34,511 nt of DNA from an uncultured Candidatus Saccharibacteria bacterium. GTDB taxonomy: Bacteria > Patescibacteriota > Minisyncoccia > Sungbacterales > SURF-37. A model generated the notes under the pieces. That model was not told the origin of the DNA, made no database searches, and was given only the letters and a program-made list of their open reading frames with translations. Below are positions 5,520 to 34,511 of the stretch, piece after piece (position 1 is the first letter of the stretch; each line of letters begins with the position of its first letter). The DNA lies in assembly GCA_964373475.1 (NCBI GenBank), contig CAYJUX010000001.1:1-34511 (forward strand), given 5' to 3'. Both the position numbers and the translations under genes were made by a program.

Positions 5520-6713
<1,194 letters not shown>

Positions 6714-6725
6714 GGAAGTTTGCAG

Positions 6726-6747
6726 GCGCGCGGCTCGAGCCGCGCGC
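6726..6747. repeat. Perfect 22-nt GC palindrome / hairpin after tuf (processing or attenuation site?)
   Basis: gcgcgcggc-tcga-gccgcgcgc, not followed by a T-run. Confidence 0.5.
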
Positions 6748-6780
6748 TTCATGATCGGCACTGCTTGTTCTTTCCCCACT

Positions 6781-7336: not shown

Positions 7337-7487
7337 AACCCCGCACCAATTTTGCCGGCGCAAAGGGGGCAGCGTGGATGCGCCCTCGCGATCGGCAAAC
7401 TCATGCGAAGCGCGTGGCCGAATAGGCCGTCCCGTTATGGGCGAAGCGCTTCGCCGTGGCATACCTCGCAAAATTGGTGCCGGGGTT
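7337..7487. repeat. Structured palindromic element, family A copy 2 (151 nt)
   Basis: TIR aaccccgcaccaattttgc / gcaaaattggtgccggggtt. Core gcgaagcgcgtggccgaataggccgtcccgttatgggcgaagcgcttcgcc. Confidence 0.85.
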
Positions 7488-11505: not shown

Positions 11506-12219
11506 ATGACTCATAGAGTGCACCCCTACGTATTCCGTCTCGGCCAGACCACGACCTGGAAGTCGCGCTGGTTCAGTGCCAAGCGCTTCCCGTCGTACCT
11601 GCGCGAGGACACACTCCTCCGGGAATGGCTGTGGCAGCGCCTCCGCGAGGCCCATGTTTCCTCCATTGAGATTGAGCGCTCGCCCAATGTCATGAACCTC
11701 ATCATTCGCACTTCCCGGCCCGGCATCCTGATCGGTCGCGGGGGCGAGGGCATTGAGCGACTCAAGAAGGACACGGTGAAGAAACTTTCATCATTCCAGA
11801 AAAAAGTCCGGCCCGGAGCGTCCCGGCGTATGCCGGCCGAGGAGCGCCGCGACCTGAAGCTCGTCATTGAAGAGGTACGCTCCCCGGAAACCGATGCCCG
11901 CATCGTGGCCGAGCAGATCCGGGACGACATTGAGAAGCGCATCCGTTTCCGGCGCATCCTCAGGCAGACGGTGGAGAAGGTGATGTCGCATAAGGAAGTG
12001 GAGGGCGTAAAGGTCATGCTCTCCGGCCGCCTGGACGGCGCGGAAATGTCGAGGACCGAGTGGTCCAAGAAAGGCCGCATCCCCCTGCAGACGCTCCGCG
12101 CGGCCATTGACTATGCTTTCACCGAGGCGCATACCACCTACGGCACCGTCGGCATAAAGGTGTGGATCTATAAGGGGGAAGTGTTTAAGGAGAGTGAGCA
12201 GGTTAAGCAAGTTAAGTAA
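11506..12219 (+). CDS. rpsC: 30S ribosomal protein S3
   Basis: MTHRVHPYVFRLGQTTTWKSRWF...; KH/S3 core. The last codons (QVKQVK-stop) lie inside repeat H1. Confidence 0.95.
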   Translation: MTHRVHPYVFRLGQTTTWKSRWFSAKRFPSYLREDTLLREWLWQRLREAHVSSIEIERSPNVMNLIIRTSRPGILIGRGGEGIERLKKDTVKKLSSFQKKVRPGASRRMPAEERRDLKLVIEEVRSPETDARIVAEQIRDDIEKRIRFRRILRQTVEKVMSHKEVEGVKVMLSGRLDGAEMSRTEWSKKGRIPLQTLRAAIDYAFTEAHTTYGTVGIKVWIYKGEVFKESEQVKQVK

Positions 12220-12267
12220 ATTAAGTGAATTAAGCTTAACTCGCTTAACTTGCTTAATTCACTTAAT
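12198..12267. repeat. Palindromic element, family H copy 1 (TTAAGCAAGTTAAG words), overlapping the rpsC 3' end
   Basis: gcaggttaagcaagttaagtaaattaagtgaattaagc + ttaactcgcttaacttgcttaattcacttaat. Both arms are identical to 21301-21396. Confidence 0.9.
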
Positions 12268-12278
12268 CAGCTCAAGTT

Positions 12279-12683
12279 ATGTTGCAGCCCAAAAAAGTCA
12301 AACACCGAAAATGGTTCAAAGGCCGTTCCCGCGGCATTGAGACGCGCGGAGCCGATCTGGCCTTCGGCAGTTTTGGCCTGAAGGCCGAGGAGGCGCGCTG
12401 GCTTACCGCGCGGCAAATAGAGGCGGCGCGGCGCGCCATTACCCATCATATTCAGCGCGGCGGCAAGGTATGGATACGGGTATTCCCGGATAAGCCGGTG
12501 ACGAGAAAGCCGCCGGAAGTTACGCTCGGCGGCGGCAAGGGGTCGGTCGACCACTACGTATTCCCGGTCCGCCCGGGACGGATCCTGTTTGAGATGGATG
12601 GCGTCTCGCCCGAAGTCGCCGCCGAAGCGCTCCGCCGCGCGGCCGCCAAACTGCCGTTACGGACCCGCATTGTTTCCGCCTAG
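12279..12683 (+). CDS. rplP: 50S ribosomal protein L16
   Basis: [19 protein letters not shown]...; canonical L16. Confidence 0.96.
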
Positions 12684-13537: not shown

Positions 13538-13640
13538 TTTACGGATTACCGATGTGTACGGATATACCGATTCGAATTCGAATGGCCGGATACTCGTACG
13601 ATTTCCATCCGTATATCCGTATTGTTCCGTAATCCGTAAA
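13538..13640. repeat. Long imperfect inverted repeat, family D copy 2
   Basis: tttacggattaccgatgtgtacggatataccgattcgaat pairs with ...ccatccgtatatccgtattgttccgtaatccgtaaa. Same words as 247-374. Confidence 0.85.
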
Positions 13641-14646: not shown

Positions 14647-14798
14647 GCACCCCGCACCAATTTTGCAACCAGTTCTCTCGCGAACCGCTTCGCCCATCGC
14701 GGGATGGCCTATTCGGCCACGCAGTTCGCGAGCATATCCGAAGTTATTACCACTCTGTGCACATGGCGAAAAAACAGCGCAAAATTGGAGCGAGGTGC
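14647..14798. repeat. Structured palindromic element, family A copy 3 (152 nt, inverted relative to copies 1 and 2)
   Basis: TIR gcaccccgcaccaattttgc / gcaaaattggagcgaggtgc. The core ctcgcgaaccgcttcgcccatcgcgggatggcctattcggccacgcagttcgcgag is the rc of the copy-2 core. Confidence 0.85.
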
Positions 14799-14838: not shown

Positions 14839-15021
14839 GCAAAGAAATCCGTCATTGCGCGCGCGCTCCGCCCCCCGAAGTTCAAATCCCGGGTGGTACG
14901 CCGTTGCTTTCGCTGCGGCCGGAAACGCGGATATCTAGGCGCGTTTGATCTTTGCCGCATCTGCTTTCGGGAGCTGGCCAATAAGGGCGAAATACCCGGC
15001 ATCCGGAAGTCATCCTGGTAA
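14836..15021 (+). CDS. rpsN: 30S ribosomal protein S14, short zinc-binding type (type Z)
   Basis: 61 aa, [61 protein letters not shown]. Confidence 0.94.
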
Positions 15022-15158
15022 AACCCTAAGCCCTAAACCCTAATCTCTAAATAAGTCCCAATGACCAAAGTCCAAATGACCGAAACACGTTCCGTTGAAT
15101 TTCGAACATTAGGATTTTGGATTTGTTTAGGGTTTAGAAATTAGGATTTAGGATTTTC
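15021..15158. repeat. Long imperfect hairpin, family E copy 2
   Basis: aaaccctaagccctaaaccctaatctctaaataag... pairs with ...ggatttgtttagggtttagaaattaggatttaggatttt. Central motif cgaaacacg. Confidence 0.75.
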
Positions 15159-15162
15159 GACC

Positions 15163-15549
15163 ATGGACCCCATCGCTGACATGTTCGTCCGTATCGTGAA
15201 CGGATATCGCGCCAAAAAAGAGGTAGTGATTTTTCCGCATTCGCGGCTGAAAGGGGAGCTGGCTAATATCCTGCAGGCAAAAGGCCTCATTGCCGGCGTG
15301 GAGAAAAAAGGCAAGAAGGTCCGCAAATTCCTTGAAGTAACGCTTTCCTACTCCCATGCCGCAGCGGCGCTTTCCGGGTTCCGCCGGGTTTCCAAACCCT
15401 CACGGCGGCTCTATACCCCGGCCAAGGCCATCCGCCCGGTCCGCGGGGGCCTCGGGACGCTTATCCTTTCCACCTCGCGGGGTCTCATGACCGGGGAGGA
15501 CGCAAGGAAAATCGGCATTGGCGGCGAGCCAATGGTAGAGGTATGGTAA
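15163..15549 (+). CDS. rpsH: 30S ribosomal protein S8
   Basis: MDPIADMFVRIVNGYRAKKEVVIFPHSRLKGELANILQAKGLI...; canonical S8. Confidence 0.95.
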   Translation: MDPIADMFVRIVNGYRAKKEVVIFPHSRLKGELANILQAKGLIAGVEKKGKKVRKFLEVTLSYSHAAAALSGFRRVSKPSRRLYTPAKAIRPVRGGLGTLILSTSRGLMTGEDARKIGIGGEPMVEVW

Positions 15550-15550
15550 A

Positions 15551-15643
15551 AAATAAAATAGTAAATATTAAAAATAAAAATTTTGGAAGTCGCCGGAGGC
15601 GACTTCAAATATTTTACTTTTTTCTTTTTACTTTTTAATTTTA
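15551..15643. repeat. AT-rich long hairpin with a GC clamp (family J)
   Basis: Central ggaagtcgcc-gga-ggcgacttc, flanked by complementary A/T-rich arms (aaaataaaatagtaaatatt... / ...aaatattttacttttttcttttta). Confidence 0.7.
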
Positions 15644-15646
15644 TAT

Positions 15647-16690: not shown

Positions 16691-17170
16691 ATGCCACGAC
16701 GAGAGCGAATGAGAGGGGGAGAGCGGGAGCGTTCTGAATTTGACCAGAAGCTTCTGGATGTCCGGCGCGTCGCCCGCGTGGTTGCCGGGGGGCGGCGCTT
16801 TAGTTTCCGCGTGACCGTGGTCATCGGGAACCGGAAGGGAAAGGTGGCCGTGGCCGTGGCCAAGGGAGCCGACGTTTCCAGCGCCATTGAGAAAGCCGTC
16901 AGCCGCGCCAAAAAGCATCTCTTCGTCGTGCCGATCACGCCCTGGGGTTCGATCGGGCACGAGGTACGCGCGAAATACGGCGCGGCGCGCGTGCTCATCC
17001 GCCCGCGGCCGGCCGGGTCGGGCATCGTGGCCGGCGGTTCGGTGCGGGCCGTGGCTGAACTTGCGGGCATTACCAATATCTCCTCCAAGATCCTCTCGCG
17101 TACCACGAATAAGCTGACCAATGCCATGGCCACGCTGGAAGCACTCAAGCAACTTAAAACGAGAATCTAG
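16691..17170 (+). CDS. rpsE: 30S ribosomal protein S5
   Basis: MPRRERMRGGERERSEFDQKLLDVRRVARVVAGGRRFSFRVTVVIGNRKGKVAVAVAKG...; the ATG at 16691 is preferred to the GTG at 16679. Confidence 0.92.
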   Translation: MPRRERMRGGERERSEFDQKLLDVRRVARVVAGGRRFSFRVTVVIGNRKGKVAVAVAKGADVSSAIEKAVSRAKKHLFVVPITPWGSIGHEVRAKYGAARVLIRPRPAGSGIVAGGSVRAVAELAGITNISSKILSRTTNKLTNAMATLEALKQLKTRI

Positions 17171-17261
17171 AATATAGAATTTAGAATCTAGAATCGCCCG
17201 AATAACTACTATCATTACCGATGTCCCAAATTCTAGATTCTAGCTTCTAGATTCTAAATTC
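17166..17261. repeat. Long hairpin (family L, TCTAGAAT words) occupying the position where rpmD (L30) normally lies
   Basis: gaatttagaatctagaatc (17177-17195) pairs with gattctagcttctagattctaaattc (17237-17261). The left arm overlaps the rpsE stop. Confidence 0.85.
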
Positions 17262-17271
17262 CATTCTTGTT

Positions 17272-20031: not shown

Positions 20032-20843
20032 TCATCGCGAACGACGGCGAGCTCGCCACGATCCGGGGATGTGGAACGCGCCTGGCACGCATTGTAGCAG
20101 AACTCGTTGCCGCGGTGAGCCCCGGCATTTCGACGAGCGAACTTGACCGCCTCGCGGAGCAGCTGATTTATAGGCAGGGCGGATTTCCGGTATTCAAGGG
20201 CTACCGCTCCCATAAGGGCGAGCGGCCGTTCCCGGCGAGCATCTGCACCTCGCTCAATGAGGAAGTGGTGCACGGTATCCCGAGCCCTAAACGAATATTG
20301 AAGGACGGCGATATTATCGGCATTGATATCGGCATGCGCTGGCCGTCACAGGATCAAAAATCAAAAATAAAAAATAAAAGCGATGGAGCTGAAGTGGGGT
20401 TGATCACGGATATGGCTCTGACGGTTCCGGTCGGCGAGGTTTCTCCGCTTACCCGTCGGCTGCTGGATACGACCCAAGGGGCGCTGGCAGCGGGCATCCG
20501 CGTTCTCAGGCCCGGTATGCGTCTCGGCGGTCTGGGGCGCGTTATTCAGGAGGCCATCGAATCGGATGGATTTTCCGTGGTGAGAGACCTGGTCGGGCAT
20601 GGGGTTGGGAAGAAACTGCATGAAGAGCCCTATGTTCCTAATTACGGGGATCCCGGGGAAGGAGAGTTTATTCGCGAAGGGATGGTGCTGGCCCTTGAAC
20701 CCATGGCCGCGAGCGGCAGTGCCGCGGTGGAACTGGCCCCAGACGGCTGGACTTGGCGCACGGCCGATGGCTCGCTGGCCGCGCATTTTGAACATACGGT
20801 GGTGGTAACAAAGGGGGGAGCGGAGATACTCACGAAGTTATGA
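20028..20843 (+). CDS. map: Methionine aminopeptidase type I, with an internal low-complexity insertion
   Basis: ...CTSLNEEVVHGIP...GDIIGIDIG...GHGVGKKLHEEP...LALEPM...HFEHTVVVT; pita-bread metal ligands recognisable. ATGA overlap with the NUDIX gene. Confidence 0.92.
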   Translation: MIIANDGELATIRGCGTRLARIVAELVAAVSPGISTSELDRLAEQLIYRQGGFPVFKGYRSHKGERPFPASICTSLNEEVVHGIPSPKRILKDGDIIGIDIGMRWPSQDQKSKIKNKSDGAEVGLITDMALTVPVGEVSPLTRRLLDTTQGALAAGIRVLRPGMRLGGLGRVIQEAIESDGFSVVRDLVGHGVGKKLHEEPYVPNYGDPGEGEFIREGMVLALEPMAASGSAAVELAPDGWTWRTADGSLAAHFEHTVVVTKGGAEILTKL

Positions 20844-20940
20844 AATTACAAATCACAAGCACCAAAATACAAATAAGCACCAAATCCCAAGCACTAAATC
20901 CCAATCACTTTGTAATTTGGAATTTGTGATTTGGAATTTT
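20843..20940. repeat. Long imperfect hairpin (family M, AAATCACAA words)
   Basis: aaattacaaatcacaa pairs 15/16 with ttgtgatttggaattt. Low-complexity CA-rich loop. Confidence 0.75.
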
Positions 20941-20944
20941 ACGC

Positions 20945-21322
20945 ATGCGCTACCTCGGCATTGACTACGGCAAAAAGCGCATTGGGCTTGCGCTCTCCGA
21001 CCCTGAGGGCCGGATGGCATTCCCCGCGGCAACGGTCGAGCGGGAGGGCGAGATATTGGAGTTCATCGCCGAGAAAGAAATAGCGGCCATCGTTATTGGT
21101 CTGCCGCTCGGCCTTGATGGCGGAGAATCGGATGCATCCTCCCGGGCGCGTGCGTTTGCGGCGCGGCTTGGTACATCGGTACAATTACCTATAGCGTTTG
21201 AGAATGAAATGTTCACCACCAAAATAGCCGAGGAGCATTCTTCGGGCGAGCACGCCGACGCCGCCGCCGCCGCCCTGATACTGCAGTCGTATTTGGATAA
21301 GCAGGTTAAGCAAGTTAAGTAA
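20945..21322 (+). CDS. ruvX: Putative pre-16S rRNA nuclease / Holliday junction resolvase-like YqgF
   Basis: MRYLGIDYGKKRIGLALSDPEGRMAFP...AIVIGLPLGLDGGES...; the last codons (QVKQVK-stop) lie inside repeat H2. Confidence 0.88.
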   Translation: MRYLGIDYGKKRIGLALSDPEGRMAFPAATVEREGEILEFIAEKEIAAIVIGLPLGLDGGESDASSRARAFAARLGTSVQLPIAFENEMFTTKIAEEHSSGEHADAAAAALILQSYLDKQVKQVK

Positions 21323-21396
21323 ATTAAGTGAATTAAGCTGATAAGGCTTTCTGCTCCGCTCGGCTTAACTCGCTTAACTTGCTTAATTCACTTAAT
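21301..21396. repeat. Palindromic element, family H copy 2, with a 26-nt central insert
   Basis: Arms identical to 12198-12267; the extra centre is tgataaggctttctgctccgctcgg. Confidence 0.9.
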
Positions 21397-21403
21397 AAAC
21401 TTG

Positions 21404-22135
21404 ATGTACCTAAGTTGGATCATTCCGGCATACCGTGAAGAACGGCGGATCTTAAAAACCCTTGAGGAGGTGAGCGCGTATTTGCGCCGGAAGGATTTTC
21501 CGGGAGGGTATGAGATCATCGTCGTGGATTCGGCTTCGCCGGATCGGACGGCGGCCATAGTCAAGGGTCTCCAAAGCCGTATACCCGAGCTTCGGCTTTT
21601 GAGCGTGGAAAATCGCGGCAAGGGCTGGGCGGTGCGCGCCGGGATGCTGGAGGCCAAAGGTGCTATTCGGATATTTTCCGACGCCGATAACTCAACTCCG
21701 CCCGAATTCTTCGATGCCATGGCACCGCTTTTTGCCGCGGGTTACGACGTGGTTATTTCTTCCCGCGATCCCAAAGATGTGCCCGGCGCCTCGCGGGATG
21801 TGGAGGAGCCGTGGTATCGCGAGGTACTGGGGAACCTCGGTAACCTCTTGATCCAGATCGTCGGCGGCATGTGGGGGATTTGGGATACCCAGAACGGTTT
21901 TAAAGCCATGACGGCGCGGGCGGCTGGTGTTATTTTTCCCCGTATGGTCATGCGAGGGTTCTCATTCGATATCGAACTCTTAGCGCTCGCGCGGCGAGCT
22001 GGCCTCCGCATTGGTGTTATTCCCATCCGGTGGCGATTCGACCCAGATAGCAAGGTGACGCTCAAGGCCTACCTCCAGGTGTTCGCCGACGTGTTTCGCA
22101 TCCGGTGGAACCTTCTGACCGGTCGCTACCGCTGA
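21404..22135 (+). CDS. Glycosyltransferase family 2 (dolichyl-phosphate glucosyltransferase-like)
   Basis: WIIPAYREERRI...YEIIVVDSASPDRT...NRGKGWAVRAGMLEAKG..IFSDADNSTP; GT-A DxD-type signature. Confidence 0.85.
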   Translation: MYLSWIIPAYREERRILKTLEEVSAYLRRKDFPGGYEIIVVDSASPDRTAAIVKGLQSRIPELRLLSVENRGKGWAVRAGMLEAKGAIRIFSDADNSTPPEFFDAMAPLFAAGYDVVISSRDPKDVPGASRDVEEPWYREVLGNLGNLLIQIVGGMWGIWDTQNGFKAMTARAAGVIFPRMVMRGFSFDIELLALARRAGLRIGVIPIRWRFDPDSKVTLKAYLQVFADVFRIRWNLLTGRYR

Positions 22136-23289: not shown

Positions 23290-24066
23290 ATGAAACCTCT
23301 TATCATCGCCAATTGGAAAATGAATCCGACGTCCGCGCGGGCGGCGCGGGTTCTTTTCGCAAATTTCCGACGCCTCCTTGCCGGCGTTCGCGGGGTTGAG
23401 GTGGCGATCGCGCCGCCTTTTCCCTATCTTGGCCTGGCGCGCGGGCGGCGAGCATTCCGGCTGGCCGCCCAGGATGTTTTTTGGGAGGCGAGCGGACCCT
23501 ACACCGGCGAAGTATCTGCGGCCATGTTAAGGGATCTTGGCGTCCGCTATGTCCTTATTGGCCATTCAGAACGACGCCGCGTATTTGGCGAGGGCAAGGA
23601 AACGATCAGCCGCAAGATCCACGCGGTCATCCGGGCCGGCCTGGTACCCATCCTGGCCGTCGGAGAAGATAGGCGCGAGTCGGAGGAGGTAGTCCCGAAA
23701 ACGCTTTTCCTTCAGCTCCAAGAGGCGCTGGCAGGCATCCCGAAGCGCGCCGTAAGAGGTATCGTGATCGCCTATGAGCCGGTATGGGCCTTGTCCACTT
23801 CGGCCGGCGGGAAGCCGGCTACGCCGGATGAGGCCACGCGGCGGGCCCTCTATATCCGGAAGCTCCTCGTAAAAACACTCGGGCCGAGGATCGCCGCTAC
23901 CATCCGCATCGTGTATGGCGGTTCGGTGAGCGCCAGGAATGCCGCCGACTATCTCGCCTCGGATATCCGCGGCATGGAAGGGCTCCTCGTCGGGGGGGCA
24001 AGTTTGCAGCCGCGAGAATTTGGCGCGATCGTCAAAGCCGTGGCCGGAAAACAGCGGCGGGGCTAG
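23290..24066 (+). CDS. tpiA: Triosephosphate isomerase
   Basis: MKPLIIANWKMNPT...IGHSERR...AYEPVWALS...YGGSV; canonical TIM. Confidence 0.93.
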   Translation: MKPLIIANWKMNPTSARAARVLFANFRRLLAGVRGVEVAIAPPFPYLGLARGRRAFRLAAQDVFWEASGPYTGEVSAAMLRDLGVRYVLIGHSERRRVFGEGKETISRKIHAVIRAGLVPILAVGEDRRESEEVVPKTLFLQLQEALAGIPKRAVRGIVIAYEPVWALSTSAGGKPATPDEATRRALYIRKLLVKTLGPRIAATIRIVYGGSVSARNAADYLASDIRGMEGLLVGGASLQPREFGAIVKAVAGKQRRG

Positions 24067-24168
24067 CCCTCCTTAATTTAATTTTGCTCCCCTGCCGTAA
24101 ACAGGAACGCTGGAAGAAAGCGGGGAAGTCACATGACCCAAGGCGGAGAATTAAATTATGGAGGGCTA
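24064..24168. terminator. Long-range inverted repeat spanning both stop codons of the convergent tpiA and ndh-like genes (candidate bidirectional terminator)
   Basis: tagccctccttaatttaatt (24064-24083) pairs with aattaaattatggagggcta (24149-24168). Confidence 0.5.
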
Positions 24169-25473
24169 GTCATTTTTCGCGCAGTAGCGCATAGCCCGGA
24201 ACCAGGTGCGAGCGGCCACCCGCCAGGGAAGAATGGAAAGGAGGTAGCAGAGTTCAACCAGCTGCTTGAGGCACCAGCCGGCGAAGCCGAAGAATTTTAT
24301 AATGACCAGGTCCGTTACCGCGTATTTCCCGCCGACGGCGAGGATGAACGGGTACTCGCGAGCGGGACGGAAGGATTTTTTCCCCTGCCCGGTTATCTCG
24401 GCGATGATATTTTTTACGGCCAGCCGCGCTCCGGCCTCGGCGACCGGTACGTTCCCGGCCAGGGGTCTCCCGGTTTTGGGGTGGATGAAATACGCATTGT
24501 CGCCGATGGCGTAGACGCGTCCGGACGGGAGCGCTACCCCCGGGGCGGGCGCTCCCGTCTCCGGGCGCGCTTCAAGGAATGCATTGACCGCGATACTCCC
24601 CTTGGTGGTCAGGGACAGAGCGAAGTTTTTAAGGACTGATGGCGGGCGGACCCCGCCGGCCCAGATAAGGATGTGGTAGGGGAGGGTTTTGCCGCTATCT
24701 AAGAGGACGTCCGTTACCCATACTTCCCGTATGCGGGTAGCGGTAAGAATGGAAACCCCAAGTTTTTTCAGGCGGCGCGTCGCCCGCTGGATAACCTCCC
24801 CGCTAAAGCCAGGCAGGATCTGGGGCGAGGCCTCGATAAGGGTAATTTCTTCCCGATATTTTCCGGCTGGCATATGCCTTTTTAAGTGACAGAGAAAGTT
24901 TACCAGTTCCGCTGCAAGCTCCACGCCGGTGGCTCCGCCGCCGGCGACGAGAATACGGAAGTTCCCCGCCGTGACCCGGATGAGGTCTTCCATGCGATTT
25001 CGGAGGCCGAGCGCATCCGCAAAGGTTTTTACCGGGAACGAGCGCTCCGCCATACCGGGGATACCGAGGAAATCCGTCTCGGCGCCCAGGGCTACGATAA
25101 GGTATTCAAAGTTCAGCTGATTGCCGCTGGCAAATGTGATGAGGTGGCGCCCCGGATCAATGGCGCGTGCGGTTTCCCCAATGAACCGGACGCCGGGAAG
25201 GCGCCGGATGATGTCCGCAATGGGAATGCAGATGGAGGTCCTCAGCCGTGCCGTGCCTGCCGCGCCCCGGGGGATGGCCGCGATCTCGTAGAGCGCGGGC
25301 GTGTAGAGATGGTATGCGTTTTGGTCCACGAGGACGATAGGGTAGCGATGCCCGAGACGGCGCCGCCGGAGACCGCGGTGCAATTTTAAAAGTGCCGTGA
25401 TCCCGCCGAATCCGGCACCGAGTACGACGATGTTTTTTTGCCCTGATTCAAGTATTGCCACGCCCGATGACAT
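24166..25473 (-). CDS. NDH-2-like FAD/NAD(P)-dependent oxidoreductase (pyridine nucleotide-disulfide family) with a C-terminal hydrophobic tail
   Basis: KNIVVLGAGFGGITALLKL... and a second GxGxxG (ILVAGGGATGVELAAEL); 435 aa. Confidence 0.85.
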   Translation of the reverse strand: MSSGVAILESGQKNIVVLGAGFGGITALLKLHRGLRRRRLGHRYPIVLVDQNAYHLYTPALYEIAAIPRGAAGTARLRTSICIPIADIIRRLPGVRFIGETARAIDPGRHLITFASGNQLNFEYLIVALGAETDFLGIPGMAERSFPVKTFADALGLRNRMEDLIRVTAGNFRILVAGGGATGVELAAELVNFLCHLKRHMPAGKYREEITLIEASPQILPGFSGEVIQRATRRLKKLGVSILTATRIREVWVTDVLLDSGKTLPYHILIWAGGVRPPSVLKNFALSLTTKGSIAVNAFLEARPETGAPAPGVALPSGRVYAIGDNAYFIHPKTGRPLAGNVPVAEAGARLAVKNIIAEITGQGKKSFRPAREYPFILAVGGKYAVTDLVIIKFFGFAGWCLKQLVELCYLLSILPWRVAARTWFRAMRYCAKND

Positions 25474-27198: not shown

Positions 27199-27765
27199 AT
27201 GGCGCGGCCGCGGGGTGAGATCAGTAGAACGATCCTGATGCTCCTGCTCGGCGGTTTCGCGTTGGGGCTGAGCGGCTCACCCCGCCGCTACGCACTGATC
27301 CTCCGGCAGCTCAAAAAGGAATTTTGCAGGATCCAATACGAAGCGGCCGCAGAAGCGGTGCGGAAGCTCTATCGGAGTAAACTGGTTGATTACCACGAGG
27401 ATCGGGAGGGGACGATCACGCTTTTCCTTACCGAGCAGGGAAAGCAGCGGGCGATCAGCGCTAAATTGGACCAGCTTTCCATTCCGAAGCCGCAGCAATG
27501 GGATGGCAAGTGGCGGCTGGTGATGTTTGATATTCCCGAGCGGTTCAAAAGAGCGCGGGATGCACTCCGTATGCAGCTGAAGCAGCTGGGATTCCTTGAA
27601 TTCCAGCGGAGCGTATTCGTGCATCCGTTCGAATGCCGCGATGAAGCCGATTTTATCATTGAGTTCTATCAGGTCCGTCCGTGGGTGCGGTACGCCACCG
27701 CCGAGGCCATCGATGTTGATCCCCATCTCCGACTGAAGTTCCGCCGTATTATTGGATCAGCTTAA
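27199..27765 (+). CDS. PaaX-C-terminal / Cas2-fold-like domain protein with a hydrophobic N-terminus (putative regulator)
   Basis: WDGKWRLVMFDIPERFKRARDALRMQLKQLGFLEFQRSVFVHPFECRDEADFIIEFY matches the W-x-G-x-W..FDIPE..R..LR..L..GF..Q.SVFV.P pattern of PaaX-like/Cas2-like ferredoxin-fold proteins. Confidence 0.6.
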   Translation: MARPRGEISRTILMLLLGGFALGLSGSPRRYALILRQLKKEFCRIQYEAAAEAVRKLYRSKLVDYHEDREGTITLFLTEQGKQRAISAKLDQLSIPKPQQWDGKWRLVMFDIPERFKRARDALRMQLKQLGFLEFQRSVFVHPFECRDEADFIIEFYQVRPWVRYATAEAIDVDPHLRLKFRRIIGSA

Positions 27766-27809
27766 TTTATGCGATCGCGCGGATATTGATGATGGATTTT
27801 TTTTGAGCA

Positions 27810-27836
27810 CAAAACGCCCGCGAAGCGGGCGTTTTG
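27810..27836. terminator. Bidirectional intrinsic terminator (12-bp stem around a GCGAAGC core)
   Basis: caaaacgcccgc-gaa-gcgggcgttttg, followed by taattttgtt on the + strand and by gtgctcaaaaaaaa on the - strand. Lies between the PaaX-like gene and the rnpB 3' end. Confidence 0.7.
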
Positions 27837-27872
27837 TAATTTTGTTCCCCATTCCGGTAAGCCGAATTCTGT

Positions 27873-27904
27873 CCCCGCCCCTGTTTTGAAAAACAGGGGC
27901 GGGG
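27873..27904. repeat. Perfect 14-bp hairpin inside rnpB, between the putative P2 3' strand and the ACAGAA (P4 3') strand
   Basis: ccccgcccctgttt-tgaa-aaacaggggcgggg. Confidence 0.7.
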
Positions 27905-28210
27905 GATGGCCATCTGTCTAGCCCCGCAATTACTTGCGGGATCAAGCGGGTCCCCCAGCCCCATGAAACTGGGGCTGGGCCCCCTTGCACCAGGTAGGTG
28001 TTTTCCTCACCCCGCAAGTCGCCTTGCGGGACTGTGGGCTCTTACCGTACCCCGCGTGCCGCCGGCATAGCCTATGGCGACGCTCGGCCGAAGCGGAGCA
28101 CCCCGCGTAGGCGGGCCACTCTTTTCACCCTTTACCTCCTCCACGCTGGAAACTTTTAGGGTTTCCGTAGTGACGATCGGTAGTATGGTCTCTGTGGTAC
28201 TGTCCCGTTC

Positions 28211-28313
28211 CCCCTCACCGATTTTACATCCGAGTTCTGTCCTGCTATACAATCGCTTCACGCAAAATTGAACGCTGTCGGTTAGTAATCTCCGATGTAA
28301 AATCGGTGAGGGG
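28211..28313. repeat. Palindromic element, family B copy 1 (103 nt), at the P9 position of rnpB
   Basis: TIR cccctcaccgattttacatccgag / ctccgatgtaaaatcggtgagggg (23/24). Lies immediately 3' of the P8-like hairpin in RNA sense. Confidence 0.8.
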
Positions 28314-28398
28314 TATGGTGGCCGTTAGCCACTACCTTTGACCCCAATGCTCCGCATTGGATGCGAAACACTGGAGACGGTGTTCGGACTTTCCTCAT

Positions 28399-28500
28399 CC
28401 CTCACCAATTTTACACCCAAGCACTGCCCTATCATTCAATCGCTTCGCGCAGAATTGACATGCTATCGCTCAGAAATCTCCGATGTAAAATTGGTGAGGG
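28399..28500. repeat. Palindromic element, family B copy 2 (102 nt), at the P3 position of rnpB
   Basis: TIR ccctcaccaattttacaccc / ctccgatgtaaaattggtgaggg. About 75% identical to copy 1 without indels. Ends 2 nt before GAGGAAAGUCC in RNA sense. Confidence 0.8.
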
Positions 28501-28530
28501 ACGCGGCCATCCAGAACAGGGAACAGCATA

Positions 28531-28559
28531 AACATAGCAGGATACTAGAAGGAAGTCAA
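28531..28559 (-). promoter_or_regulatory. Promoter candidate for rnpB: TTGACT-17 nt-TATGTT
   Basis: Minus strand has ttgact (rc of 28554-28559) and tatgtt (rc of 28531-28536). The predicted TSS falls ~6-7 nt downstream, at the start of the proposed P1 strand. Confidence 0.45.
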
Positions 28560-29319: not shown

Positions 29320-29476
29320 GGGATTGCACTCCCATCTCCAGCTTACCTCGCTCAGATATTGCTCGGATATGCGGCCAGCGGGGATCGAACCTGCGTTTCG
29401 AGCTTGCTTCCACACCAATGCGAGTGACGGGGATCGAACCCGTGTCCCCAGCTCTTGCCCTCCCACCTTTTCGCTG
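29320..29476 (-). pseudogene. Tandem tRNA 3'-half relics (two clear, one degraded)
   Basis: Minus strand carries T-arm + acceptor 3' strands acgggttcgatccccgt-cactcgc-a (29419-29443) and gcaggttcgatccccgc-tggccgc-a (29370-29394). No matching 5' halves exist. A third, weaker unit lies around 29320-29368. Confidence 0.6.
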
Positions 29477-29564
29477 ATGCGGGATACCAGAATCGAACTG
29501 GTACTTACTGCTTGGGAAGCAGCCGTTCTGCCACTAAACTAATCCCGCGTAAAAGGTGGGAGGG
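29458..29564. repeat. Perfect 14-bp inverted repeat bracketing tRNA-Gly
   Basis: ccctcccacctttt (29458-29471) and aaaaggtgggaggg (29551-29564). Confidence 0.9.
29478..29548 (-). tRNA. tRNA-Gly (anticodon CCC), CCA not encoded
   Basis: gcgggat-ta-gttt-agtggca-gaac-g-gctgc-ttCCCaa-gcagt-aagt-accag-ttcgatt-ctggt-atcccgc-a folds into a canonical 71-nt cloverleaf. Confidence 0.88.
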
Positions 29565-29565
29565 T

Positions 29566-29602
29566 GAAGGAAGCTGATGTTCTGCCACTATATTAATGTC
29601 GC
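29566..29602 (-). pseudogene. tRNA-Gly 5'-half-like relic overlapping the gatB stop codon
   Basis: Minus-strand gcgacattaatatagtggcagaacatcagcttcc compared with the tRNA-Gly sequence gcgggattagtttagtggcagaacggctgcttcc. Confidence 0.5.
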
Positions 29603-31065
29603 TTGCTCAATTTCTCACGGAGTAAATTCTGTACGGCATCGGGGTTGGCGCCGCGCATTTGCTTCATAACCTGGCCGACGAGGAACTGCAAGGCGCCGGC
29701 ATTGCCGGCTTGGTAGTCGTCCACGGCTTTTTTATTCTCGGTGAGCACGGCATCAAGCAGAGTGCCCAGGGTTGAGTCGTCCGAAATCTGCCAAAGTCCT
29801 TTTTCCTCAATAATGATAGAGGGGTCGGCGCCATGGGCCATCATTTCGGCCAGCACTTCCTTTCCCGCTTTTGAGGATATTTTCCCCGCGCTAAGATAGG
29901 CGATCAATTCCGCGAAGTTTTCGGGGTCCAGTCGCTCGCGGATAGGCGCGCCGGCCAGGCGGCTCAATACATCCGTCGTGAGGTAGTTTGCGGCAAGCGG
30001 GAACGCCCGGGGGTCATTCTTTTCTCCGCCGGCCGCGGCAAGCCATGGGGGGAGTTCGGATACGGTGGCCTCAAAAAAAGCCGCCACATCCCGGTCCTGG
30101 ACCAGTATGGAGGCAAGTTTGGCGCTTATCTTAAATTCGTCCCGGAAACGGGCAAGCTTTTGGGCGGGCAGTTCGGGGAGCGAGCGCTTGAGCTCCTCAA
30201 TGGTTTCCGGGGTGATCGTAAGCGGGGGCAGGTCCGGCTCGGGGAAGTAGCGATAATCTTCTGACCCCTCTTTTAAGCGCTGGCCCACGGTTACCCCGCG
30301 CTGGGCATCCCAGCCCCGCGTTTCCTGGACCACCCCTTCCCCGCGCTCCAAAAGGCCGGCTTGGCGGACAACTTCATATCGAATGGCATCCTCCACGAAA
30401 CGGAATGAGTTGATGTTTTTCAGCTCCACTTTGGTACCGAGCGTATCTGTACCGATAGGCCGAATAGATACATTGGCCTCAATGCGCATTTCTCCTTTTT
30501 CCATATTGGCCTCCGATGCTCCGACATATTGGAAAATACGCTGGATATTTTGGGCGGCCAGGCGCGCGTCGGCGGCAGTGCCAAGATCGGGCTCGGTCAC
30601 GAGTTCCATCAGTGGGATGCCGGCGCGGTTGAAATCAACCAGCGTCGCCTTGGAGGCGGGATCGTGGACGAGGCGTCCGGTGTCCTCTTCCAGATGCACC
30701 CGCCGGATACGGAGCCGCCTTACCTCGCCTTCGGCATCCGCGAACTCAAGCATACCGCTCTGGACCAGCGGGAGGGCGTACTGCGAGATCTGATAGCCCT
30801 TGGGGAGGTCGGGGTAAAAATAATTCTTGCGTTCAAATTGGGTGGCGAGGGCGACTCTCCCCGAAAGCGCGAGGCCGACGCGGAGCACATGTTCCACCGC
30901 GGCGCGATTTATGACCGGCAGAGTTCCGGGGTGCGCCATGCACACCGGGCAGATGTTTATGTTTGGCCTCGCCTCATCGGGGTCGTTCAAAGAATCGCAG
31001 AACATCTTGGTCCTCGTTTTGAGTTCGGCGTGAATCTCTAACCCAATTACTGGCTCCCACGTCAT
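29593..31065 (-). CDS. gatB: Asp-tRNA(Asn)/Glu-tRNA(Gln) amidotransferase subunit B
   Basis: MTWEPVIGLEIHAELKTRTKMFC...CPVCMAHPGTLPV...; 490 aa, canonical GatB. Confidence 0.95.
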   Translation of the reverse strand: MTWEPVIGLEIHAELKTRTKMFCDSLNDPDEARPNINICPVCMAHPGTLPVINRAAVEHVLRVGLALSGRVALATQFERKNYFYPDLPKGYQISQYALPLVQSGMLEFADAEGEVRRLRIRRVHLEEDTGRLVHDPASKATLVDFNRAGIPLMELVTEPDLGTAADARLAAQNIQRIFQYVGASEANMEKGEMRIEANVSIRPIGTDTLGTKVELKNINSFRFVEDAIRYEVVRQAGLLERGEGVVQETRGWDAQRGVTVGQRLKEGSEDYRYFPEPDLPPLTITPETIEELKRSLPELPAQKLARFRDEFKISAKLASILVQDRDVAAFFEATVSELPPWLAAAGGEKNDPRAFPLAANYLTTDVLSRLAGAPIRERLDPENFAELIAYLSAGKISSKAGKEVLAEMMAHGADPSIIIEEKGLWQISDDSTLGTLLDAVLTENKKAVDDYQAGNAGALQFLVGQVMKQMRGANPDAVQNLLREKLSKRH

Positions 31066-31753: not shown

Positions 31754-34511
31754 ATGATAGTAAAAGACAATCGAATTTACCTATCGCTAAAGGAGATCGC
31801 TCCGTCGAGTCCCTACTCTGCGGACTACCTCCGTATACGGATCCTCCAAAGGAAACTCCAGGGTATTAAGGTTGGCCGCGAGTGGTATATCACCAAGGAG
31901 TGGCTGAATGAGTATCTCTCTCGATACGGCATGAAGCGAATGGAGCCGGTACTGCCGGTAACGGGGTCGGAGCCAGGGGGAGCGATACCCGAGGCGGCAC
32001 CGGCGGCAATTCCCGCGCAAGAGCCAGTTCCAGTTTTTTTTGAGGCGGCAACGGAACCCATCGTTTCGCTGGCGCCCGCGCTTGCGGCAATTGAGCAGCC
32101 GGAAGGAACTTTTGACCCCGCAGTAACGGTGCCCTCCGCCGAGTTGCCGCTGTCCCGGCCCGAGGAGGAGATCATTCCGGCTGCGGCAGTAGCGCGATTG
32201 CCCGAGCCGATCCGCGTTTCCAAGGAGGAAATTTTTCGGCGGCATGACTTTCGCGAGTTTTCAAAAGGTCTCCGCCTGCCTATTTCTGGAAAAATTTTAG
32301 CGGCGCCGCTGCTGGCCGCTCTCCTCTTTTTTTTCATCTCGCCGACTGGAGCGTCATTTTTTCCGTGGCGGGGCGCGCTCGCGTCCCGCGCCGTTTCTCT
32401 TCTTGATGGCACCGGCGCATTTCTCTTAGAGGCCCAACTGCCTCGCCTGAGCGCGCTTCGCGTCCCCGAGCGATGGGTGCGCTGGCCCGACGTGGTTACT
32501 GAGGAGCTTGTCCAGGTCAATTTTGGACCTGTTACTTCCTCGTGGAATGGTTTTCGCCACGGGATAACCGCCTCAGTCAGCTTTTTTGGTGGGTATATTG
32601 CATTCCCTCCTGACGCGATCGGAGGCGCAGTTTTAGAGATGGACATCCCAGAGTTGGCCAGGGCCGGCGATCGCCTGGGGGCGATCTTTTCGCCTCTGGC
32701 TGGGTTCGCGGCTGCATCGCGAGAATATAACGCATCTGCTTTTTCTTGGGACCCCGCGTGGTATGAGGATATTCCTGAATTTCCCGGCAAGCTCCGCGAT
32801 GCCGGCGCCTATGCGTTCCGTCATATCGGTGATGCGCTGGTGGAGTTTGACCCTCCCTCGCGAAAAGATATCGCGGCCGGAGCAAAAAGAGCTGCCAATG
32901 CTTCGGACAATGCTATTGCCGGCCTTGCTCATATAGGGAATATTGCCTGGGATCTCTCCGGTGGATTAAAAGAGTATGCGGCGCATTCGCTTTCCTCCAT
33001 CCAAAGCGCCGATGTCCTCGGGGCACTGCGGCGTTTTATTGCTGATCTGCCCCGTCCGAAACTGCCTGAGCGGATGGCCAGATTTTTCAACCTTTCTTCG
33101 CCGCCGCTGACGGCGCCGCAAGCCAACGCGCCGGTGCGTCGGGCGTTGGATAAGAATCAAGAAGCAGGGATCATGAAGCAGGAAGCAAGAAGCACGAAGC
33201 AAGAAGGGGGCGCAGTTGCGGCCGCTCCGGCAGTGACGCCAGTCCGTGAAATCGTGGAAACGCGGGAGGTAGTCCGGCCGGCCGATGCTTCGCTCTTCCA
33301 GGCAAAACTGGATGAATTGAACGCCGGCCTCTCCGGACGGGCAAATAAACTTATTTCCGAATTGGCCGGTCTTTACGAGGGGAAAGAGATCAAGGCGTCG
33401 GTCATCCGGATATTCTCTCCCTCCCAGTCCATCAATGAGCTCCAGGAAGAGTTGGCCAGGGCCGGCGATCGCCTGGGGGCGATCTTTTCGCCTCTGGCTG
33501 GGTTCGCGGCTGCATCGCGAGAATATAACGCATCTGCTTTTTCTTGGGACCCCGCGTGGTATGAGGATATTCCTGAATTTCCCGGCAAGCTCCGCGATGC
33601 CGGCGCCTATGCGTTCCGTCATATCGGTGATGCGCTGGTGGAGTTTGACCCTCCCTCGCGAAAAGATATCGCGGCCGGAGCAAAAAGAGCTGCCAATGCT
33701 TCGGACAATGCTATTGCCGGCCTTGCTCATATAGGGAATATTGCCTGGGATCTCTCCGGTGGATTAAAAGAGTATGCGGCGCATTCGCTTTCCTCCATCC
33801 AAAGCGCCGATGTCCTCGGGGCACTGCGGCGTTTTATTGCTGATCTGCCCCGTCCGAAACTGCCTGAGCGGATGGCCAGATTTTTCAACCTTTCTTCGCC
33901 GCCGCTGACGGCGCCGCAAGCCAACGCGCCGGTGCGCCTGGCCCTTACGCCGAAAGATGAGAAGCAGGAAGCGGGCGCAGCTCCGGCGGCGCCAGTTCGC
34001 GAGATCGTGGAAACGCGCGAAGTAGTCCGGCCGGCTGATGTCTCCTCGTTCCAGTCCCAACTGGACCAGCTGAACGCCGGGCTGCGCACCCAGGTCGCAA
34101 AGCTCATCACCGATGTGGCCACCCTGTACACGGTCACGGATAGGAAGGTCACCACCATCACTTCCTTTGCCCCGTCCCAGAGCATTGACGAACTGCAAAA
34201 CTTGAAAGTGGACAGCGGCCTTACGGTCCGCTCCGGGAATTTTTTTATTTCCGCGGGCGACCTTACGGTTACCGGGAGTGGACGCGTTACCGGCACGCTC
34301 GCCATTGACGGCACTTTTTCCGCCGCATCCCTTTCCACCGGTGGCCTCGTTACCTCGACTGGTTCCGGCACCAGTACCTTCTCCGGCGGCGGCTCCTTCG
34401 CCGGCCTGGCCTCATCAAATGGCCTGCGCGTCTCGGCCGGAGATACCGTGCTCGCCGGCGGCCTCGCGGTTACCGGCTCCTCCAACTTCACCGGCAGTGT
34501 CGGCATCGGGA
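31754..34511 (+). CDS. Large HTH-TM-repeat protein, 3'-truncated by the window end (>919 aa)
   Basis: Open frame from the ATG at 31754 to the window end (absent from the ORF track, probably because there is no stop). N-terminus IYLSLKEIAPSSPYSADYLRIRILQRKLQGIKVGREWYITKEWLNEYL (excisionase/MerR-like HTH); TM helix ILAAPLLAALLFFFISP; two ~266-aa repeats; G/S/T-rich beta-helix-like tail. Confidence 0.75.
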   Translation, partial: MIVKDNRIYLSLKEIAPSSPYSADYLRIRILQRKLQGIKVGREWYITKEWLNEYLSRYGMKRMEPVLPVTGSEPGGAIPEAAPAAIPAQEPVPVFFEAATEPIVSLAPALAAIEQPEGTFDPAVTVPSAELPLSRPEEEIIPAAAVARLPEPIRVSKEEIFRRHDFREFSKGLRLPISGKILAAPLLAALLFFFISPTGASFFPWRGALASRAVSLLDGTGAFLLEAQLPRLSALRVPERWVRWPDVVTEELVQVNFGPVTSSWNGFRHGITASVSFFGGYIAFPPDAIGGAVLEMDIPELARAGDRLGAIFSPLAGFAAASREYNASAFSWDPAWYEDIPEFPGKLRDAGAYAFRHIGDALVEFDPPSRKDIAAGAKRAANASDNAIAGLAHIGNIAWDLSGGLKEYAAHSLSSIQSADVLGALRRFIADLPRPKLPERMARFFNLSSPPLTAPQANAPVRRALDKNQEAGIMKQEARSTKQEGGAVAAAPAVTPVREIVETREVVRPADASLFQAKLDELNAGLSGRANKLISELAGLYEGKEIKASVIRIFSPSQSINELQEELARAGDRLGAIFSPLAGFAAASREYNASAFSWDPAWYEDIPEFPGKLRDAGAYAFRHIGDALVEFDPPSRKDIAAGAKRAANASDNAIAGLAHIGNIAWDLSGGLKEYAAHSLSSIQSADVLGALRRFIADLPRPKLPERMARFFNLSSPPLTAPQANAPVRLALTPKDEKQEAGAAPAAPVREIVETREVVRPADVSSFQSQLDQLNAGLRTQVAKLITDVATLYTVTDRKVTTITSFAPSQSIDELQNLKVDSGLTVRSGNFFISAGDLTVTGSGRVTGTLAIDGTFSAASLSTGGLVTSTGSGTSTFSGGGSFAGLASSNGLRVSAGDTVLAGGLAVTGSSNFTGSVGIG
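32650..33138 (+). repeat. Direct repeat copy 1 (489 bp, identical by eye to copy 2)
   Basis: agagttggccagggccggcgatcgcc...gccaacgcgccggtgcg recurs exactly 798 bp downstream. Confidence 0.9.
33448..33936 (+). repeat. Direct repeat copy 2 (489 bp)
   Basis: Same sequence as 32650-33138. The offset of 798 bp equals 266 codons, so the repeat is in frame. Confidence 0.9.

Follow-up and report, generated by a model that had tools for sequence, protein, structure and literature searches.

An enlarged Sungbacteria rnpB gene with a conserved P9 domain and its probable paralogue at P3

The rnpB locus

The stretch of DNA under analysis (the entire 34,511-nt NCBI contig CAYJUX010000001.1, referred to as the window) carries the str, S10 and spc ribosomal operons together with secY, pgk, tpi and gatB. 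On its minus strand, positions 28525 to 27843 are a genuine rnpB, the gene of a type-A RNase P RNA. With its ends set by the pairing of helix P1, the gene is 683 nt long, nearly twice the usual size. RNase P RNA is known from textbooks as a conserved ribozyme of about 350–400 nt, and bacteria of the candidate phyla radiation (CPR) have a reputation for reduced genomes and trimmed RNAs. An original prediction, made from the sequence, had proposed an rnpB of about 680 nt with its hallmark motifs in order and two long hairpin elements at P3 and P9; all of this was borne out. The prediction had assigned most of the excess length to these two elements, to which a third insertion of about 69 nt in the P13 loop must now be added. 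Shorter or longer versions of the P13 insertion are present in two related loci (L207 and L211) and it is absent from three others (L202, L203 and L206). The features of the gene are collected in Table 1.

The two P4 strands and the joining regions (GAGGAAAGUCCG ... ACAGAAnnCGGCUUA) are conserved, in the correct order and identical in the sister genes introduced below. The specificity-domain modules P10–P14, with AGGGUGAAA and GGUAAGAGC, align to the Rfam model RF00010 at high posterior probability. The long-range helices P1 (15 bp) and P2 (6 bp) enclose the gene and are formed by the same strands in the sisters; the pairings previously drawn for them, including three G-U pairs in P1, are confirmed by the sequence. 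An unconstrained minimum free energy (MFE) fold of the 683 nt (z = -13.5) returned P1, both long arms, P8, P12, P14, P18 and P19. The last of these corresponds to a hairpin at 27873–27904 that had been described as a perfect 14-bp hairpin; the hairpin exists, is P19 with 15-nt arms, and is found in the sisters as well.

At Rfam gathering thresholds, a tRNA was the only match in the whole window. When the thresholds were relaxed, RF00010 matched positions 27842–28377 with 79 bits (E = 4.6e-24). Since this is below the gathering score of 100, the gene is missed by routine annotation, and genomes with such rnpB genes look as if they have none. The alignment captured the 3' two-thirds of the gene in one match, with a 110-nt unaligned stretch at P9 and one of 78 nt in P13. 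It misplaced the 5' end because the model cannot pay for the insert at P3. The covariance search suggested alongside the prediction was thus adequate for the 3' part, and the comparison with sister genes was needed to locate the true 5' end: in a multiple alignment, window positions 28524–28502 match the P1-P2-P3 base of the sisters nearly base for base. The shortfall in score is a consequence of insert penalties and the misplaced 5' end. Sisters without a P3 arm score 155, 135 and 100.3 bits. Neither arm contained a match to any Rfam family at E values up to 10, and no rnpA was found within the 34.5-kb window.

A putative sigma-70-like promoter ends 6–7 nt ahead of the first P1 base, and a TTGAC... 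TATA(T/C)T arrangement occurs at the equivalent position in L202 and L208. On the other side, a PaaX_M/Cas2-like gene of 188 aa (window 27199–27765, plus strand; L202:5456–6013; L211:2442–3008) converges on rnpB. Its terminator is common with that of rnpB in several lineages, and a second paralogue is located near ruvX.

Table 1. Features of the window rnpB and of the sister genes (window coordinates unless a locus is named)
Feature	Position or length	Strand	Basis or remark
rnpB	27843–28525	-	RF00010; alignment with syntenic sisters; fold
Predicted sigma-70-like promoter	28531–28559	-	-35 TTGACT, 17-nt spacer with TG, -10 TATGTT; consensus scan
P1 5' strand	28511–28525	-	pairs with 27843–27857, 15 bp, 3 G-U; sequence and MFE fold
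P2 5' strand AUGGCC	28505–28510	-	pairs with GGCCAU 27906–27911; strands also in sisters
P3 arm, 104 nt	28398–28501	-	paralogue of the P9 arm (probable) in place of the sisters' short P3 (UCCCGCU-UUU-AGCGGGA); 101 bits with R1
P4 5' strand and J3/4, GAGGAAAGUCCGAAC	28382–28396	-	sequence; conserved in all sisters
Extra hairpin between P5 and P7/P8, P5.1-like position	28342–28376	-	length varies among sisters; alignment and fold
P8, GUGGCUAACGGCCAC	28318–28332	-	Rfam alignment, high posterior probability
P9 arm, 103 nt	28211–28313	-	orthologous in all sister lineages; 102 bits with R1
P12, ordinary length	28134–28180	-	same sequence in L202 and L206
Insertion of ~69 nt, GC-rich hairpins, 5' side of P13 loop (GGUAAGAGC)	28047–28115	-	model alignment 78 nt versus 9; sister alignment
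P13 loop and 3' strand, conserved (GGUAAGAGCCCAC), then P14	28010–28046	-	Rfam and sister alignments
P15-17 hairpin	27948–27984	-	site of the GIY-YIG open reading frame in L207 and L216
P18, GUAA loop	27923–27940	-	Rfam alignment
P19 hairpin, 15-nt arms, 100% complementary	27873–27904	-	P19 present in all sisters
P4 3' strand, ACAGAAUUCGGCUUA	27858–27872	-	sequence and Rfam alignment
Bidirectional intrinsic terminator, 13 bp	27809–27837		3' of rnpB; common to the convergent PaaX_M/Cas2-like gene (27199–27765, plus)
L202/L213 rnpB	489 nt		RF00010 155 bits
L203–205 rnpB	534 nt		RF00010 135 bits
L208+L211 rnpB	574 nt		two overlapping contigs, one genome; RF00010 62.1 bits (L211, 3' part only)
L207 rnpB	865 nt; L207 5680–6545		RF00010 100.3 bits; insert 6157–6442; GIY-YIG open reading frame 6172–6429
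L216 rnpB	about 960 nt; L216 ~5790–6750	-	RF00010 44.8 bits

Host lineage and sister genes

As judged by GatB and the neighbouring genes, the contig belongs to Candidatus Sungbacteria (Patescibacteria). In a species-level genome set, the relatives of GatB reached no more than about 50–59% identity and were nearly all from Patescibacteria; in a larger protein collection, the closest named relatives were Candidatus Sungbacteria. Exact look-ups of the window GatB and of a cupredoxin-like protein returned no match. A cyanobacterial origin had been suspected from the GCGATCGC site and was rejected. The octamer occurs 5 times against 2.3 expected, and the proteins point to Patescibacteria.

The gene order gatB, tRNA-Gly, rnpB, PaaX_M-like gene, RNase H, PGK is common to the window and to Sungbacteria contigs, and this conservation allowed syntenic rnpB genes to be recovered from five further lineages (Table 1). 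L206 contributes only a 3' fragment. In three other Patescibacteria, rnpB is 296–399 nt. The contigs of the nearest relatives, L201 (GatB 78%) and L210 (PaaX-like protein 84%), stop just outside rnpB. A scan of metagenomes with CCCKCACCRATTTTRCA gave single chance matches only, the pattern being too permissive. Contig breaks beside P9 were considered as a sign of a genomic repeat. This idea was discarded, as L208 and L211 merely overlap across P9 at the k-mer length of the assembler.

The P9 arm

An arm is present at the P9 site in six lineages: the window, L202/L213, L203–205, L207, L208/L211 and L216. The sister arms are 98–104 nt in length and, in every sister that covers the region, are located between CCACC-AU(A/G) and GAACGGGACAG. 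In the window, the P3 and P9 elements have the same rod-like build. Terminal arms of 20–24 nt, 96–100% complementary, form a perfect 20-bp helix followed by one mismatch and three more base pairs, after which come loosely conserved linkers and an apical hairpin with the motif UGC-N5/6-GCGAUUG. The terminal motif CCCTCACCRATTTTACA has exactly four occurrences, all at the ends of these two elements; with up to three mismatches allowed, there are seven matches where 0.13 would be expected by chance.

The six P9 arms were aligned together with the window P3 arm (seven sequences). The 23-bp basal stem has no indels across the alignment, and 98.6% of the cells in 30 modelled pairs hold standard pairs. 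Thirteen pairs are altered on both sides, a number reached by none of 500 shuffles, and slid controls gave two at most. On the sense strand, G-U pairs outnumber A-C pairs by 17 to 2, which is the pattern expected from selection on an RNA and not on a DNA palindrome. The apical motif, placed within a CAAUU/GAUUG hairpin, is invariant in the arms. Between the window and the sisters, the identity of the P9 arm is 44–77% and that of the core 69–86%. From these comparisons, the P9 arm is read as an expansion domain of long standing that is under selection as RNA, and not as a recent miniature inverted-repeat transposable element (MITE). The fixed helix length and the fixed tip suggest that the tip has to be placed at a defined distance and phase. 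An invariant tip at a fixed helical distance in turn suggests a partner, making the arm a candidate binding module.

The P3 arm

The P3 arm is found in the window only and is absent from the five sister lineages, where P3 is 17–38 nt and either short (e.g. UCCCGCU-UUU-AGCGGGA) or unrelated to the arm (38 nt, L216). At P3 of the window, UCACC...GGUGA takes the place of the loop and inner stem, and the junctions fall within UCCC/GGGA bases common to P3 and to the L208 P9 arm. Identity of the P3 arm is 80% with the window P9 arm, 85% with that of L208 and 60–73% with the remaining P9 arms. The original prediction had given the two window copies about 75% identity and no indels; both figures need correction, as identity comes to about 80% and a single 1-nt indel separates the copies (spacing 187 versus 188).

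In a neighbour-joining tree, the P3 arm groups with the P9 arms of the window and L208. The tree gives no order inside this trio, which dates the P3 copy to roughly the separation of the window lineage from that of L208/L211. All six paired-column differences between P3 and the window P9 keep the pair, two of them by double compensatory change and two by a change to G-U. Identity between the two copies is 88% in the stem and 90% in the apical hairpin, and 53–70% in the linkers. This pattern of divergence reads as that of a maintained copy and not of decaying junk.

The same differences bear on whether the gene might be a mis-assembled duplicate or a non-functional pseudogene. The contig belongs to a metagenome-assembled genome, breaks occur at or beside rnpB in several sister contigs, and the RF00010 score is under the gathering threshold. 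However, an assembler cannot produce 20% divergence with compensatory changes, the P3 copy has flanks identical to the P3 base of the sisters, and the core motifs, promoter and terminator are intact. With the breaks in the sister contigs accounted for by k-mer overlaps across P9, an artefact or pseudogene is very improbable.

Palindromic elements and the question of mobility

The arm ends resemble terminal inverted repeats, and the original prediction had offered two origins for the arms: a MITE-like element that colonised the gene twice, or lineage-specific expansion segments. By the first account, palindromic DNA inserted independently in the P3 and P9 loops and persisted solely because a long inverted repeat is harmless as an RNA hairpin. 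MITEs and the Rickettsia palindromic elements have terminal inverted repeats, are about 100–150 nt in length, occupy tolerated sites in multiple copies and are usually flanked by target-site duplications. The rnpB arms share the inverted-repeat ends, the size and the tolerated site, whereas the module lacks a visible target-site duplication and gave no strong dispersed copy in about 1 Mb of loci, of which 34.5 kb are from this genome.

A covariance model of the arm (R1) was searched against the window and 69 loci, totalling 1.0 Mb. No strong copy was identified outside rnpB in this set, with the rnpB arms alone scoring high (85–103 bits). The tip motif in its context occurred only in rnpB in 1.36 Mb searched, and IMG/VR held no match. 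The flanks of the two arms (GCG and UGA at P3, AUA and GAA at P9) contain no direct repeat and so no target-site duplication. No autonomous partner with P9-type ends was found, as the GIY-YIG inserts of L207 and L216 end differently (CCCCCCACCACTTTCATG), and there is no GIY-YIG open reading frame (ORF) in the window.

The window does contain three palindromes of about 147 nt (2303–2450, 7339–7487 and 14650–14797) that occur in both orientations and have a common core, GGCGAAGCGCTTCGCC ... GGCCTATTCGGCC. They occupy intergenic positions in the ribosomal operons str, S10 and spc, one of them between L5 and S14, where L213 has a spacer of only 14 nt. Their ends, CCCCGCACCAATTTTGC, agree with the rnpB arm ends at 14–15 of 17 positions (0.13 expected by chance). 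Inside these ends they bear no relation to the rnpB arms. Identity over the full length is about 50%, and their R1 scores are weak (E = 0.007 to 0.5).

Palindromes have also entered rnpB itself in the sisters. In L207, P12 has been swapped for a 100-nt palindrome whose antisense strand has CGCGAUUGAUUCG, a 13-nt identity with the tips of L202 and L216 (R1 24.7 bits, E = 0.004), as if it held the core of the module in antisense. The element is itself palindromic and global identity does not separate the two orientations (64% versus 62%), so that the inverted orientation is favoured by the model score and the 13-nt motif only. In both L207 and L216, the P15-17 hairpin contains a sense-oriented GIY-YIG ORF of 85 aa (Pfam E = 1.5e-16). 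These inserts are bounded by 18-nt inverted repeats, CCCCCCACCACTTTCATG and CATGAAAGTGGTGGGGGG, in which CATG/CATGA hold the start and stop codons. The ends of the L207 P12 palindrome are identical to the ends of the GIY-YIG insert. With palindromes in both P12 and P15-17 of the sisters, the peripheral hairpins of rnpB are recurrent sites of palindromic insertion in this clade.

While the end similarity of the window palindromes, their weak R1 scores, the antisense core in P12 of L207 and the ORF-carrying inserts in P15-17 all lend something to a MITE origin of the arms, it is improbable on the whole. The P9 copy occupies one and the same site in six lineages, where it shows compensatory changes and a G-U bias on the sense strand, no target-site duplication was seen, no strong copy outside rnpB turned up in 1.0–1.36 Mb, the window palindromes resemble the arms at their ends only, and the two window copies have diverged by about 20% with all pairs and the apical motif kept. 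Of the two origins first offered, the expansion segment is favoured for P9, given the six lineages and the covariation; two MITE insertions are not supported, as the P3 arm appears to be a window-only paralogue of the P9 arm and no strong copy was found outside rnpB in the loci searched. As for the P9-type module, its behaviour is that of a domain specific to rnpB.

A broader proposal would join these observations. The arm of about 100 nt may be a self-contained RNA domain that moves between rnpB hairpin loops (P9 in all lineages, P3 in the window and, as an inverted core, P12 in L207). Other palindromic inserts that target hairpin loops, some with a sense GIY-YIG gene, would form a larger group with it and remodel structured-RNA genes in Sungbacteria (rnpB, perhaps tRNA-Gly), so that an rnpB containing a protein gene would reach about 950 nt. 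As a whole, this proposal is speculative and unlikely.

Proposed explanation

The locus is probably best explained as a functional Sungbacteria rnpB with a normal type-A core, in which the P9 rod is ancestral and selected and the P3 rod is its paralogue. The gene would be transcribed from its own promoter to the bidirectional terminator, and the core (P1–P5, P7–P15, P18, plus P19) would fold as in a normal type-A RNA. Two peripheral hairpins would each be replaced by a rod of about 100 nt stacked on the host helix; since each rod is closed by a long helix, it should fold alone and leave the core undisturbed. The P9 rod, ancestral in this Sungbacteria clade, would be under purifying selection as a sense-strand RNA and may display its apical motif at a fixed distance to a protein or RNA partner. 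A P9 rod of the window/L208 type would then have been copied into the P3 loop. Because the junctions lie in the UCCC/GGGA bases common to P3 and P9, template switching or ectopic conversion is a probable route. Since the duplication, the P3 rod would have been held under the same constraints as the P9 rod.

Whether the rods stay in the mature RNA is a separate matter and compatible with the same origin. The arms may be intervening sequences that are transcribed and then cut from the basal duplex by RNase III or another nuclease, giving a fragmented but active P RNA. The basal duplexes are 20–23 bp and nearly perfect, which is long enough for RNase III. Brown and co-workers are said to have described, in 2015, CPR rRNA genes with insertions that are absent from the mature rRNA. 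A published precedent exists in Thermodesulfatator indicus, where the P12 segment is removed and the P RNA is fragmented in vivo (PMC9945441). Excision, however, needs the stem only and leaves unexplained the invariant apical motif, the stem length fixed across seven sequences and the 90% apical identity of the window copies. For this reason, excision is considered a serious possibility but a rather unlikely one, and the balance tips slightly towards both rods being kept in the mature RNA.

Several points weigh against the explanation of an ancestral P9 rod and a P3 paralogue. P9 identity is out of step with core identity (L202 has 86% in the core and 58% in P9), and a swapping of P9 variants among lineages could mimic covariation. 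A degree of DNA-level mobility is suggested by the window palindromes with similar ends and by the probable inverted core that L207 has in P12. The search for copies covered no more than 34.5 kb from this genome and, for the clade in total, about 170 kb. The age and uniqueness of the P3 arm rest on distant sisters because the L201 and L210 contigs end short of rnpB. Finally, the retention of the rods and any function of the apical motif are presumptive.

Comparison with known systems

The statement in the original prediction that no comparable rnpB case had been described was too strong, as two papers give precedents (PMC8172020, PMC9945441). Lui, Nielsen and Arkin reported in 2021 on CPR P RNAs that have greatly extended helices, score under the Rfam cut-offs and have to be refolded by hand (PMC8172020). 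Like the window gene, these are type-A RNAs from Patescibacteria with extended helices and sub-threshold Rfam scores. They have an extended P15 and missing helices; in contrast to the present case, no clade-conserved P9 domain, P3 duplicate or ORF within rnpB was described. The second precedent is the P12 expansion segment of the T. indicus RNase P RNA, which is excised in vivo with fragmentation of the RNA (PMC9945441). It resembles the window arms in being a large, lineage-specific peripheral extension of a type-A P RNA encoded within rnpB. The T. indicus segment is in P12, single copy and excised, whereas the window arms are in P9 and P3 and form a homologous pair.

Further parallels are found among repeat families. 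Repeats of the STRR type (short repetitive units arranged in tandem) reportedly reside inside rnpB of heterocyst-forming cyanobacteria, an observation from 1997 that is attributed to Vioque. As with the arms, a repeat family would occupy a peripheral helix of rnpB and be tolerated by the ribozyme; unlike the arms, which are structured hairpins of about 100 nt confined to rnpB, STRRs are said to be short tandem heptamers spread genome-wide. The intervening sequences of 23S rRNA and the rRNA insertions of CPR bacteria put an extended stem-loop in place of a hairpin loop, some with ORFs, and are sporadic and excised. The replacement of a hairpin loop by a stem-loop is shared with the rnpB arms, and the ORFs have a counterpart in the inserts of L207 and L216. 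The P9 arm differs from these sporadic, excised elements in being fixed in its clade with a conserved tip.

The literature searches turned up neither a duplicated expansion domain in a bacterial rnpB nor any GIY-YIG gene or palindromic element there. The main interest of the locus is in the domain duplication inside a ribozyme and in the very large sister genes that carry an ORF. This clade runs opposite to the trimming seen in CPR bacteria, with a structured domain of about 100 nt fixed on P9 and, in one lineage, apparently duplicated onto P3. Such a duplication would be a clear natural example of a catalytic RNA growing through duplication of a domain, as accretion models of both RNase P and the ribosome presuppose. 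With a nuclease ORF within rnpB, the sister genes prompt one to ask whether the RNase P RNA is broken into pieces in vivo, or even acts as an mRNA.

Other structured repeats in the window

The spacers of the window are unusually rich in structured repeats for a CPR organism with a small genome. The tRNA-Gly(CCC) gene (29478–29548) lies in a region, 29380–29620 on the minus strand, where 14-nt inverted repeats (CCCTCCCACCTTTT and AAAAGGTGGGAGGG) flank it. The gene is nested among what appear to be older tRNA-Gly-like halves, consisting of one 5' half that overlaps the gatB stop codon and two 3' halves. ARAGORN and Rfam detect the inner tRNA-Gly only. Related sites are present at L201:11470–11717 and L208:6560–7190, and the L208 nest also contains a GIY-YIG ORF with its own inverted repeats.

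AT-rich intergenic palindrome or hairpin families, some with a 9-nt periodicity, are repeated at distant sites: 12188–12281 and 21291–21419; 1675–1732 and 15019–15076; and 268–373 and 13538–13640. Further AT-rich palindromes are located at 15547–15645, 17148–17264, 20843–20939 and 24063–24169. Near the end of the window, a perfect direct repeat of 300 nt (32650–32949 and 33448–33747, 798 nt apart) is found in two adjacent paralogous ORFs on the minus strand (32966–33730 and 33727–34506), which suggests a recent gene conversion, or an assembly collapse or duplication.

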